A stretch of 45,879 bases of DNA from an uncultured Candidatus Saccharibacteria bacterium (GTDB taxonomy: Bacteria > Patescibacteriota > UBA1384 > JAMDBS01 > CAYSHH01), in assembly GCA_964430945.1 (NCBI GenBank), contig CAYSHH010000007.1, positions 1 through 45,879 of the forward strand, given 5' to 3'. The notes under the pieces were generated by a model. The model had not been told where the DNA came from and did not search any database. It worked only from the letters and a program-made list of their open reading frames with translations. A program made the position numbers and the translations under genes. Shown one piece after another: positions 3,192-10,095 of this stretch (position 1 is its first letter; every line of letters starts with the position of its first letter).

Positions 3192-4511
3192 ATGAAAAAA
3201 ATCATATTAGTTTTTTTGCTCGGACTGATTTTACTTCCAACATTTGCCTTTGCTGATGGTGGAATGTTTCCACCGGATAATAATTATATTTACGAAACTG
3301 GACAAAAAGGGGCTATCTACTATAAAAACAAAGAAGAAACCCTTGTCTTGTCAACTTCTTATGAAGGTGACGCAAAAGACTTTTCTTGGATCATTCCAAC
3401 TCCAACCCAGCCGGATGTCACAAAGGTTTCCAAGGATATATTCACTAATTTATCAAAACTCACAGAGTTAGAAGTTAATAAAAGTGCACCGAGTAGTCTT
3501 GGCGGAGCTGGAATGTTGGAAACTGCAGTTGGCGAAGTACAAGTTTTAGAAGAAAAACAAATTGGTTATTATGACGTAACAGTTATCAAATCAACTGATG
3601 AGAATGCACTGTATGATTGGTTTAAAGAAAATGGTTATCAATATCCCGAAGATGGAAAATATATTTTAGACGATTACGTGCGCCTTGGTTGGATCTTCAC
3701 TGCAGTAAAGATTACCGAAGATGCACAATCAAACAGTTCAATTCAGGAAAAAATAAACAGTGGACAAGTAGCCCCGCTTAAGCTTGTTTTTTCTTCAGAT
3801 AATATCGTTTTTCCTCTAAAGATTTCTGGTATATCACAATATTTTTCAGAGTACGAAGACTTAAGAAATGGCAATGACGAAAACTTGTCATTGGACACCG
3901 AACCCATTTCCCCATACTATCCTACTGGTATGTCTATCGAACTGTATGTATTTACAGATAGCAAACAAGAACTTACTGGTTTTACCACGGAATATGCAGA
4001 CTGGGTTAACTCAGATCAAATCAATCGTCTTGCTACAGATGAACAAGGTAACAGTTGGGTCAATGCAGATCAAAAAATGTATCTTACTAAAATGTATAGA
4101 TATACTGAGTTGTCCCAGATGGATGAAGATCTTTATCCACAGAGCGCTAAGGACAATCATACTGTTGGAGTATTGAGTTGGTGGGAGAAAATAATAAATT
4201 GGGCGATTCAGTATATTGTAGTATTCCTGATAATTCTTGTCTTGATGTATTTTGTACCGATATATTGGCAATTCAAGTCAGCTTCAAAAGCATGTCACGT
4301 CATAAGTTGGATATCTCAGACTATTAGTTTCTTGATCATTGGTGCACTACCGCTTATATATGCGCTTATGATCTCATTTGAAATTTTTGGATATGGCTAT
4401 GTAGATTTCTCAATGATCATGGTGGGAATCCCATATATTATTATGCCACTTATGATGCTTGTTCTTCTTATTGCTGAGGGTGTCTGGCAAAAGAAAAACA
4501 TTCAAAGATAA
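3192..4511 (+). CDS. DUF2330-like exported protein with C-terminal transmembrane helices
   Basis: Signal peptide ending AFA-DGG; ETLVL..YEGDAKDFSWIIPTP; W...NGY..P; PLKLVF; three hydrophobic C-terminal segments; SD AAGGAGG. Confidence 0.75.
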   Translation: MKKIILVFLLGLILLPTFAFADGGMFPPDNNYIYETGQKGAIYYKNKEETLVLSTSYEGDAKDFSWIIPTPTQPDVTKVSKDIFTNLSKLTELEVNKSAPSSLGGAGMLETAVGEVQVLEEKQIGYYDVTVIKSTDENALYDWFKENGYQYPEDGKYILDDYVRLGWIFTAVKITEDAQSNSSIQEKINSGQVAPLKLVFSSDNIVFPLKISGISQYFSEYEDLRNGNDENLSLDTEPISPYYPTGMSIELYVFTDSKQELTGFTTEYADWVNSDQINRLATDEQGNSWVNADQKMYLTKMYRYTELSQMDEDLYPQSAKDNHTVGVLSWWEKIINWAIQYIVVFLIILVLMYFVPIYWQFKSASKACHVISWISQTISFLIIGALPLIYALMISFEIFGYGYVDFSMIMVGIPYIIMPLMMLVLLIAEGVWQKKNIQR

Positions 4512-7891: not shown

Positions 7892-8218
7892 AAATAAATA
7901 TTATTTAATTCCTAATGTGTAAATTTAGATTCATGGTTTTGCTAAATTTTTATTACATCAACATATAATGCATTAATTACGGATTGTAATTGTATGAAAA
8001 AACGATGTTTGGCTTTGGATAAAACGTCAAAATCGGTACACGGAAAATTTACCATTGATCTTTTATATTTATCCTTTAACCTGTGGATACAGATAATATA
8101 GAAAAACATTTTGTGGAAAAACAATAAGACAACAGGTTAAAAATATTATGTTGTCATAATATGTATGATAATGTATGATAAATAACACATCGCAAAATAC
8201 TTAACATGGAGGGACGAA

Positions 8219-8446
8219 ATGGTTGGAATTACTAATAGGTTAGAAATTGTCGAAGTATTTAATGACTTAACCAAGGGGTTCGAACCAATAGATTTGGAAA
8301 ATCTTGTTCGAAAATATCCTGCTGATGCTACCACAATCAGATTACGTGGCGAAGGAGGTATTACGCATATAGGAAAATATAGATGCTGCAGAGATGCGGC
8401 TAATAAACTTCATGTATGGGTAATTTCTTCATCTTATTGCAACTAG
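8219..8446 (+). CDS. Hypothetical 75-aa protein
   Basis: ORF preceded by GGAGG SD; no recognisable family. Confidence 0.6.
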   Translation: MVGITNRLEIVEVFNDLTKGFEPIDLENLVRKYPADATTIRLRGEGGITHIGKYRCCRDAANKLHVWVISSSYCN

Positions 8447-8479
8447 CTCTGACTCCAATCGTAGAAAGGAGATGGTTAT

Positions 8480-8704
8480 ATGACAATCTACGGATACGAT
8501 TGGAAAAGGAAGAAATGGATAAAATTTTCAATAAGCAAAGTTGATAAAATCATGAAAGAAGAGGTGAATGCAGTGAGTGATAATTTTTCGAATGCCGGGT
8601 CAGCGTTTGCAGATCTTGTTGATGATTTGCAATCACGCAAACCCGAAGTAACAGACAAAAAAATTCCCGAAGCAGAAGGTGTTCCACAAATTCCCAAGGG
8701 CTAA
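8480..8704 (+). CDS. Hypothetical 74-aa protein
   Basis: ORF preceded by AAAGGAG SD and followed by a terminator. Confidence 0.65.
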   Translation: MTIYGYDWKRKKWIKFSISKVDKIMKEEVNAVSDNFSNAGSAFADLVDDLQSRKPEVTDKKIPEAEGVPQIPKG

Positions 8705-8729: not shown

Positions 8730-8753
8730 AAGGGGCCAAGCGCCCCTTTTTTT
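8730..8753 (+). terminator. Intrinsic terminator
   Basis: aaggggc-caagc-gcccctt followed by T-run. Confidence 0.8.
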
Positions 8754-8874
8754 ATTTGCATAAAATATATGTTTTGATATGATACAGTATTAATTTATAA
8801 TTGAAGAAGAAGCGCAATCGTTTAAGTACACAACAATTTTGATTTCTTATAGTTTGTAATTTTTATATATTATC

Positions 8875-9723
8875 ATGCATCGACAACGTCTCACCATCAC
8901 CCTTAGGCAAGATCTCTTAAGTCAGGTCGACAAAAAAATCGACGGGGTTCGTATTCGCAATCGTTCTCATGCAATCGAATATTTACTTACTAAGTCTATG
9001 GGATCAAAGATCAATAAAGCTTTCATTCTTGCTGGAGGTGAAGGGCTCAAGATGCGCCCCTTTACCTATGAGATGCCTAAGTCAATGATACCGATTGATA
9101 ATAGACCAATACTTGAATATATCATTGAACTTCTTAGAAACAACGGTATAAAAAACATTTATATTGGTATTGACTATTTGGCCAAAAAAATAAAGTCCCA
9201 CTTTGGTGATGGTGATAAATTTGGTGTTAATATCAAATACATTGAAAACAAAGTTCCACTGGGAACTGGTGGTGCTCTCAAATCTGCTAAAGCATATCTA
9301 AAAGATAGTAATTTTGTACTTATACATGGAGATCTTTTGGTAGATATTGATTTAGTCGATATGATTGATTTTTCCGAAGAAGAAAAAACTATCGCTACCA
9401 TGGCTCTTACGTCAGTCGAAGACCCATCACTTTATGGGTCAGTTCGTCTGCGCGGTGCGGATATTGTTGAATTTTCTGAAAAACCAAAAGTAAATCATAA
9501 TGTCTCTCGTTTGGTAAATGCCGGAATCTATGTGATGAAACCAGAAATATTCAATCATCTTCCTAACAAGAAAAAATTTTCAATCGAAAAAGAAATTATC
9601 CCTAATCTTATAAAAGACAAAAAAATTAGTGGTTATCATTTTGCAGGAGCCTGGTATGATATTTCAACACCAACGATTTATGGAAGAGCTGTCAAAGATT
9701 GGAAAAAGAAAAAGAGTGTTTAA
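8875..9723 (+). CDS. Ribbon-helix-helix domain fused to NTP_transferase (sugar-phosphate nucleotidyltransferase) domain
   Basis: N-term RLTITLRQDLL..VD.......NRSHAIEYLL (CopG/NikR-like); then AFILAGGEGLKMRP, PKSMIPI, PLGTGGAL, HGD, VNAGIY, W.DI. Confidence 0.85.
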   Translation: MHRQRLTITLRQDLLSQVDKKIDGVRIRNRSHAIEYLLTKSMGSKINKAFILAGGEGLKMRPFTYEMPKSMIPIDNRPILEYIIELLRNNGIKNIYIGIDYLAKKIKSHFGDGDKFGVNIKYIENKVPLGTGGALKSAKAYLKDSNFVLIHGDLLVDIDLVDMIDFSEEEKTIATMALTSVEDPSLYGSVRLRGADIVEFSEKPKVNHNVSRLVNAGIYVMKPEIFNHLPNKKKFSIEKEIIPNLIKDKKISGYHFAGAWYDISTPTIYGRAVKDWKKKKSV

Positions 9724-9799: not shown

Positions 9800-9886
9800 G
9801 CGGACGTGGCGGAACTGGTAGACGCGCAGCCTTGAGGGGGCTGTGGGCGCAAGCCCGTGGAAGTTCAAGTCTTCTCGTCCGCACCA
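9800..9886 (+). tRNA. tRNA-Leu(GAG)
   Basis: GCGGACG/CGTCCGC acceptor, CAGCC-TTGAGGG-GGCTG arm, long variable arm, CCA. Confidence 0.97.
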
Positions 9887-9933
9887 TTATTTTAAAAATC
9901 AATAAACTAAATAACAAGTTTACTAAACAATTT

Positions 9934-10009
9934 GGACGGTTAGCTCAGTTGGTAGAGCATCTCGTTTACACCGAGGGGGTCACAGGTTCGAGTCCTGTAC
10001 CGTCCACCA
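9934..10009 (+). tRNA. tRNA-Val(TAC)
   Basis: GGACGGT/ACCGTCC acceptor, loop TT-TAC-AC, TTCGAGT, CCA. Confidence 0.97.
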
Positions 10010-10019
10010 TTATTGTTTT

Positions 10020-10095
10020 GCCGTGGTAGCTCAGTGGTTAGAGCACAGGTCTGAAAAACCTGGTGTCGGCGGTCCGATTCCGCCCCGCGGCACCA
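10020..10095 (+). tRNA. tRNA-Phe(GAA) with non-canonical T-loop (TCCGATT)
   Basis: GCCGTGG/CCGCGGC acceptor, CAGGT-CTGAAAA-ACCTG arm, CCA. Confidence 0.93.

Follow-up and report, generated by a model that had tools for sequence, protein, structure and literature searches.

The closest solved match to the N-terminus described here is the nickel regulator NikR (PDB 1q5v, 2hzv), which combines an N-terminal ribbon-helix-helix (RHH) domain with a C-terminal ligand-binding oligomerisation domain. In E. coli, its operator is the inverted repeat GTATGA-N16-TCATAC, with the half-site GTATGA (PMC7055735). The protein of the present study shares this two-part layout, the R-x-T-I-T-L strand and the NRS N-cap, and its candidate operator is built from the identical hexamer. 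In comparison, the C-terminus of NikR is an ACT-like NikR_C domain and its ligand is nickel, whereas here the C-terminus is a nucleotidyltransferase fold, a nucleotide or sugar is the presumed ligand, and the repeats are direct with a period of 10 bp. Lacking a NikR_C domain and associated with direct instead of inverted repeats, the protein is thus not a NikR.

PutA, BirA and NadR are called “trigger enzymes”, in which a repressor domain joined to a metabolic enzyme fold regulates the pathway of that enzyme. PutA has an N-terminal RHH, and NadR carries nucleotidyltransferase activity. They differ from the fusion in enzyme folds and pathways, none being a sugar-1-phosphate nucleotidyltransferase, and their sequence relation to it is limited to the RHH class. 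GMPPA and GalF are catalytically inactive or attenuated regulators with a nucleotidyltransferase fold, a precedent for NDP-sugar sensing, and GMPPA is found among the profile matches of the enzyme part. Unlike the fusion, they have no DNA-binding domain and regulate a partner enzyme allosterically, not transcription. Literature searches returned no paper on an RHH–sugar nucleotidyltransferase fusion, in line with the initial annotation, which knew of no characterised example; close conceptual precedents do exist, however, in PutA, BirA, NadR and NikR.

The gene lies in a 45,879-nt stretch of Saccharibacteria DNA, called the window. We read its product, with about even confidence, as a self-regulating trigger enzyme, in which an autorepressing RHH domain is joined to a nucleotidyltransferase fold whose ligand state would tune DNA binding. 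The DNA-reading head of NikR has apparently been reused, and a sugar-nucleotide enzyme fold would receive the signal. To our knowledge, almost no transcription factors have been studied in the very small genomes of Patescibacteria and DPANN archaea. The fusion is a regulator candidate with a concrete candidate operator, present in about a tenth of the sampled Patescibacteria genomes and in archaea, and is potentially the first operator–regulator pair for these organisms.

Gene and Domain Architecture

The following features define the gene and its product:
8875–9723, + strand: RHH–nucleotidyltransferase fusion gene (P0001), from the open reading frame list and translation; 282 aa, with full-length homologues covering 95–100%
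8875–9009, + strand: RHH domain, residues 1–45; strand RLTITL, helix 12–22, G24-x3-RNRSH N-cap, helix 30–41
9016–9693, + strand: sugar-1-phosphate nucleotidyltransferase fold without left-handed β-helix (LbH) tail, residues 48–273; Pfam PF00483, E 4.5e-39
9034–9060, + strand: altered pyrophosphorylase G-loop GGEGLKMRP, residues 54–62, with Leu58 and Lys59 replacing Thr-Arg; from the translation and family statistics

The reading frame is open over its whole length and starts with ATG. It is not a chance frame, since full-length homologues exist and the RHH is their most conserved region. The match to NTP_transferase reaches 134.9 bits against a curated cut-off of 21.2. The Pfam search found no hexapeptide/LbH domain in the 282-aa protein and nothing after residue 273. 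In the translation and alignment, the PK lysine is found in P68-K69 and the HGD motif at residues 151–153. In place of the signature loop G-x-G-T-R-(L/M), the protein reads G-E-G-L-K-M. The catalytic PK lysine (K69), the two metal-binding aspartates of GD and WxD (D153, D262) and the EKP motif (E202-K203) are all present, with roles that we assume by homology to RmlA/GlmU-type enzymes. The initial annotation had proposed an N-terminal RHH, an NTP_transferase domain without LbH tail, and a loop in which Thr and Arg are replaced while the PK Lys and GD are kept; all three descriptions hold.

None of the NCBIfam equivalog cut-offs (ManC/GMPP, RmlA, GlmU, GalU, MurU, HddC, RfbF) is reached by the protein. 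It scores highest with man1P_GTase_Rv (168 bits, cut-off 440), Arch_glmU (162, cut-off 292), rmlA_long (144, cut-off 320) and MurU (140, cut-off 250). As all of them lie so far below the cut-offs, the substrate is not defined by these matches. The closest enzymes are the CugP-type UDP-glucose pyrophosphorylase tlr0611 (8x7s), the GMPPB/VTC1 GDP-mannose pyrophosphorylases, MurU and HddC, with profile E-values of 7e-56 to 1e-28, TM-scores of ~0.7–0.78 and 26–35% identity. They share with the fusion an R-x-R-P type loop, PK, PxGTAG, GD, EKP and WxD. In contrast to it, they have no RHH, mostly carry a C-terminal LbH and have Thr-Arg in the loop, where the fusion has Leu-Lys.

A toxin–antitoxin pair (an RHH antitoxin with a nucleotidyltransferase toxin) was also considered. 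It is ruled out by the GT-A-like sugar fold, which is not of the Pol-beta/MNT type, and by the single, fused and broadly conserved gene.

Distribution of the Fusion Family

The domain search and taxonomic survey proposed in the initial annotation revealed a conserved RHH–NTP_transferase architecture in many lineages of Patescibacteria and in a single archaeal clade (Altiarchaeota, DPANN). Nearly all of the best 120 database relatives are 269–307 aa long with 95–100% query coverage, the one exception being a 212-aa fragment, and the conserved length of the family is ~278 aa. More than 580 relatives were found in a scan of species-representative genomes. The carriers among Patescibacteria are Saccharibacteria, Gottesman-, Berkel-, Wirth-, Kerfeld-, Andersen-, Doudna-, Buchanan-, Falkow-, Nealson- and Jacksonbacteria and Parcubacteria; among archaea, they are Altiarchaeota and DPANN archaea, together with a Methanobacteriota single-cell genome. 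Of 401 genomes sampled evenly from the window's phylum, ~43, roughly a tenth, contain the full RHH-plus-G-loop segment.

Several clusters of the ESM Atlas have the fusion architecture, with RHH_1 detected in just 18–80% of their members, which accounts for the records being annotated simply as nucleotidyltransferases. For annotators, this means that “nucleotidyltransferase family proteins” of the fusion type carry a DNA-binding domain that is mostly missed at Pfam thresholds. The family tree (FastTree) is unrooted and, thus, no direction of transfer between the two domains of life is claimed. Eight metagenome-assembled records (L012, L019, L023, L029, L038, L051, L056 and L079) are titled “uncultured Gammaproteobacteria bacterium” and contain a gene of the Patescibacteria type. 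These labels are probably wrong, because the sequences fall among Patescibacteria in the tree.

Active-Site Residues and Sugar Context

In RmlA/GlmU-type enzymes, the canonical arginine of the G-loop contacts the NTP phosphates. Among 186 distinct full-length fusions, position 58 is L, V or I in 84% and T in 11%, and position 59 is K in 72%, N in 11%, R in 9% and Q in 5%, with D, S and H also found. On the unrooted tree, position 59 has changed several times independently, and a relative with 87% identity carries Q. This variability could reflect relaxed catalysis. It favours a reading that we regard as possible but rather doubtful, namely a pure sensor-regulator, as suggested in the initial annotation, in which catalysis was lost or nearly lost in the bacterial branch, with an NDP-sugar or NTP acting as co-repressor or inducer for the RHH. 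GMPPA and GalF likewise use this fold without catalysis.

The rest of the active site argues against such a loss. Residues K69, D153, K203, G188 and W260 are invariant in the 186 fusions, and R61, E202 and D262 are present in 99%, a conservation of catalytic and metal-binding positions (99–100%) that is stricter than ligand binding usually needs. Lys59 keeps a positive charge. The archaeal members retain the loop GTRMRP, and in 11 archaeal loci the next gene downstream encodes a phosphohexomutase (phosphoglucomutase/phosphomannomutase). Near the bacterial fusions, genes for a ROK kinase, PFK, TrmB and an NDP-sugar epimerase recur. Besides acting as a regulator, the window copy may thus well have kept its enzyme activity. 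The initial annotation had taken the altered loop as the sign of a switch from enzyme to sensor, and this is not established.

The pure sensor gains from a set of short paralogues of 205–225 aa, present in about a dozen sampled genomes, mostly of the window's class. They have lost the G-loop/PK segment, the HGD aspartate, the YG...EKP segment and the C-terminal WxD, while their RHH is perfect. Some have similar upstream repeats. Catalysis is, by this measure, apparently dispensable in some branches of the family. The series from canonical enzyme over altered loop to dead truncated sensor suggests a route by which enzymes may become regulators. Examples of the short form, here 204–223 aa long and with a degenerate nucleotidyltransferase-like domain behind the RHH, are found in L109 (1001–1642), L110 (962–1633), L111 (974–1627), L112 (1001–1636) and L113 (566–1180, minus strand); some genomes contain the full and short forms together, and one contains two short forms only.

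A wider version of the sensor reading can be put forward tentatively, in which the family is a one-component sugar-nucleotide sensor common to ultra-small bacteria (Patescibacteria) and archaea (Altiarchaeota, DPANN), responding to the NDP-sugar or NTP pool and acting on promoters via GTATGA direct repeats, with bacterial catalysis attenuated or lost and the dead paralogues as end point. If true, the protein would be a NikR-like repressor with the nickel domain replaced by a nucleotidyltransferase fold. It would be among the few conserved metabolic transcription factors of reduced genomes, and its operator code would be common to both domains of life.

The genome of the window encodes ManC-, GalU- and GlmU-N-like proteins with canonical GTR loops and one phosphohexomutase. 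These three canonical paralogues would already supply GDP-Man, UDP-Glc and UDP-GlcNAc, which again favours the pure sensor. With them present and no rhamnose pathway, no missing NDP-sugar obviously requires a fourth enzyme. Two supply roles were rejected. The fusion is not the only UDP-GlcNAc, UDP-Glc or GDP-Man enzyme of the genome, given its GlmU-N-, GalU- and ManC-like genes. A supply of dTDP-glucose for rhamnose is excluded by the lack of RmlC, and of RmlB/RmlD above cut-off, in this 99%-complete genome.

In nine bacterial loci (L029, 4933–5916, and eight others), a protein of ~300–350 aa is encoded directly downstream of the fusion gene. It has a weak DUF6206 match, invariant K, D-x4-N and D motifs, and an AlphaFold2 model (pLDDT 89.8) with a protein-kinase-like fold (Foldseek E ~5e-6, TM ~0.4). 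A possible role is that of a small-molecule kinase which supplies the transferase. Its gene is absent from the window's genome.

The Ribbon-Helix-Helix Domain

The N-terminus of the window protein alone matches Pfam RHH_1 with an E-value of 0.012 and 15.9–16.2 bits, below the cut-off of 20.5. RHH_1 is matched by 20 of 22 homologous N-termini (best E 6.7e-5). A profile of these N-termini retrieves E. coli NikR from the PDB with an E-value of 0.0016, as well as CopG (E 0.08) and P. horikoshii NikR; in this search, NikR QRVTITL...NRSEAI aligns with RLTITL...NRSHAIE of the fusion. AlphaFold2 predicts an N-terminal strand followed by helices 12–22 and 30–41. In a two-copy model of residues 1–47, the strands form an antiparallel ribbon with T7 opposite T7 and residue 9 paired with residue 5. 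The predicted fold has the β-α-α topology, the intertwined dimer and the antiparallel two-stranded ribbon of an RHH.

The two-copy model scores 0.49, and the best control scores 0.00. Among proteins of solved structure, 20 of 30 same-chain pairs and 1 of 23 single chains attained this value. The runs share at least 92% of their contacts, with a partner pLDDT of at least 77. Solved structures include many RHH dimers and, therefore, this pass may reflect likeness to them and is not proof of pairing. Profiles and models together place the N-terminus among RHH domains of the NikR/CopG type.

In the alignment, conservation of the fusion is highest at the RHH residues. Positions D19, D23 and R28-N-R-S-H32 are invariant in the 186 fusions, and the DNA-facing strand residues R5, T7 and T9 are present in 87%, 94% and 99%. 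NikR contacts GTATGA via Arg3, Thr5 and Thr7 of its ribbon, with which R5, T7 and T9 of the fusion align. Predicted DNA binding is well supported and appears to be the constant feature of the family.

It remains unlikely, in our estimate, that the protein is an ordinary enzyme whose RHH is a dimerisation handle, or serves constitutive autoregulation independent of ligand and without metabolic sensing. Such an enzyme would fit an active site that is intact except for two loop residues, and also the sugar-phosphate context of many loci. However, the DNA-facing residues and the RNRSH N-cap are conserved above the enzyme part, a specific repeat accompanies the fusion gene, and the retention of the RHH in enzyme-dead paralogues would make little sense for a mere handle.

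A GTATGA Repeat Upstream of the Fusion Gene

A tandem repeat with the consensus GTATGATAnnGTATGATA is located upstream of the fusion gene. About half of 80 loci have it within 200 nt upstream, whereas it occurs in 1% of background windows; the repeat was first spotted by eye in the 120 nt upstream of 81 loci and was afterwards counted in the same loci. The strict form TATGA-N5-TATGA has 50 matches in 634 kb on both strands, of which 32 are on the coding strand, no more than 200 nt upstream of the gene. With a position weight matrix built from these strict-form sites, 52% of the upstream windows score at least 8, against 1.1% of 2979 other 200-nt windows, a ~50-fold difference. The same score is reached in 22% of the loci left out of matrix building and in 4 of 13 archaeal loci.

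The repeat is very rare at the genome scale. Five other genomes of ~1–1.4 Mb each contain one to three copies at up to one mismatch, and of the five exact copies among them, four are directly upstream of the fusion gene. In the 892-kb genome of the window, the only exact copy is at 8163–8179. With up to two mismatches, 15 sites are found there against 12–20 in shuffled sequences, which is background level. With one exact site and looser matches at shuffle level, no wider regulon can be called in this genome.

The hexamer of the repeat is identical to the half-site of E. coli NikR. Neither the window genome nor the fusion protein contains a NikR_C domain, and no second RHH of the fusion type is found in the window genome. 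The bacterial repeats overlap promoters of the type TTGACA-N16/17-TATGAT, one unit often coinciding with the −10 hexamer TATGAT; predicted binding would thus repress. The idea of a regulator, put forward in the initial annotation, receives strong new support from this repeat at both bacterial and archaeal promoters and from the truncated paralogues that keep the RHH. The fusion most likely represses its own promoter via the GTATGA repeats, and this autoregulation would link sugar activation to gene control.

That the repeat is instead a lineage-specific promoter element or the site of another factor, with the RHH directed to other DNA or RNA, is very improbable: the frequent match of one bacterial unit with the −10 hexamer and the half of the loci without a repeat inside 200 nt would fit it, but the repeat is too rare in genomes, with its exact copies mostly at the fusion gene, is present upstream of archaeal members, whose promoters differ, and equals the half-site of NikR, the most similar characterised RHH.

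Additional copies were seen as single cases. In L084 (~1490–1520; G004:C2:47112–47138), a second genomic site with three tandem units, GTATTATAAAGTATGATGAGGTATGAT, is preceded by a TTGACA box and followed by an orphan reading frame of 98 aa. In L091 (~1501–1517; G002:C1:319710–319726), a one-mismatch repeat is found ~25 nt upstream of the release-factor-2 gene (prfB), which is followed by glmS, and may be there by chance. The glmS product performs the first step of UDP-GlcNAc synthesis. A further site, also outside the window's genome, precedes a P-type ATPase gene. All three are candidate targets, as yet unproven. In an Andersenbacteria-like clade (L024, L030, L036), the minus strand has a repeat in opposite orientation ~870–1010 nt from the start of the fusion gene; it lies shortly beyond the 3′ end, between the fusion gene and a convergent gene for a ROK kinase.

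Promoters and Neighbouring Genes in the Window

The region upstream of the fusion gene is organised as follows:
8151–8179, + strand: promoter-like TTGTCA-17-TATGAT; the second repeat unit serves as −10 box, and the core is identical in L001 and L004
8163–8179, + strand: perfect, operator-like copy of the tandem repeat, GTATGATAATGTATGAT; the site is also conserved in the relatives L001 and L004
8219–8704, + strand: two small orphan open reading frames of 75 aa (8219–8446) and 74 aa (8480–8704), behind the perfect repeat
8730–8749, + strand: intrinsic-terminator-like hairpin between the small reading frames and the fusion gene
8755–8783 and 8774–8801, + strand: promoter-like sites of the fusion gene itself, TTTGCA-17-TATGAT and TTGATA-16-TATAAT; both overlap the weak run
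8767–8793, + strand: weak three-unit run with period 10, ATATGTT / ATATGAT / GTATTAA, ~85–110 nt upstream of the ATG

The distal and proximal promoter regions are both conserved in L001 and L004, the two nearest relatives. The terminator-like hairpin separates the fusion gene from the perfect repeat. At the proximal site, the weaker copy covers the −10 box of the fusion gene itself. Each unit pair of this run has three mismatches, as many as in chance matches within the window, and the run is not significant alone; L001 and L004 share its core, TTTGATA-GATA. As the perfect repeat precedes the small reading frames and a degenerate run the fusion gene, the small-ORF operon is the strongest predicted target in this lineage, and autoregulation is predicted to be weaker.

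In the self-regulating trigger enzyme that we favour, the N-terminal RHH domains would pair into dimers, each reading one GTATGA(T) unit. Two or three dimers would then occupy consecutive units with 10-bp spacing and, thus, the same face of the double helix. The units overlap the promoter −10 region and, thus, binding is proposed to block RNA polymerase. In the window, the targets would be the small-ORF operon promoter (8163–8179) and, more weakly, the protein's own promoter (8767–8793). The C-terminal nucleotidyltransferase fold would join the dimers and bind NTP, sugar-1-phosphate or NDP-sugar. The fusion would probably still make an NDP-hexose, with the ligand state tuning DNA binding. The architecture, the conservation across the family, the location of the repeat and its match to the NikR half-site are observed, and the binding to DNA, repression, control by a ligand, catalysis and the nature of the sugar are inferred.

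The two small reading frames have strong Shine-Dalgarno sites. They match no Pfam family, and no homologues are found behind the same promoter in the relatives; their operon is a candidate second target of the regulator. Unrelated small reading frames follow the conserved GTATGA promoter in different relatives, with 75 and 74 aa in the window (8151–8704), 132 and 42 aa in L001 (4324–4901) and 68 and 53 aa in L002 (5938–6573); in L004, the slot is at ~3470–3540. The arrangement resembles a fixed regulated slot whose small-protein cargo varies.

No riboswitch is found in the leader, the only Rfam matches being tRNAs. The lineage of the window has no sugar-related conserved neighbours, the gene order being SecG, SBP_bac_5, the fusion gene, tRNAs and S1. 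The three tRNA genes (Leu-GAG, Val-TAC and Phe-GAA; 9800–10095) are located directly downstream of the fusion gene, and the cluster is followed by a 147-aa membrane-like reading frame and then by the gene for ribosomal protein S1.
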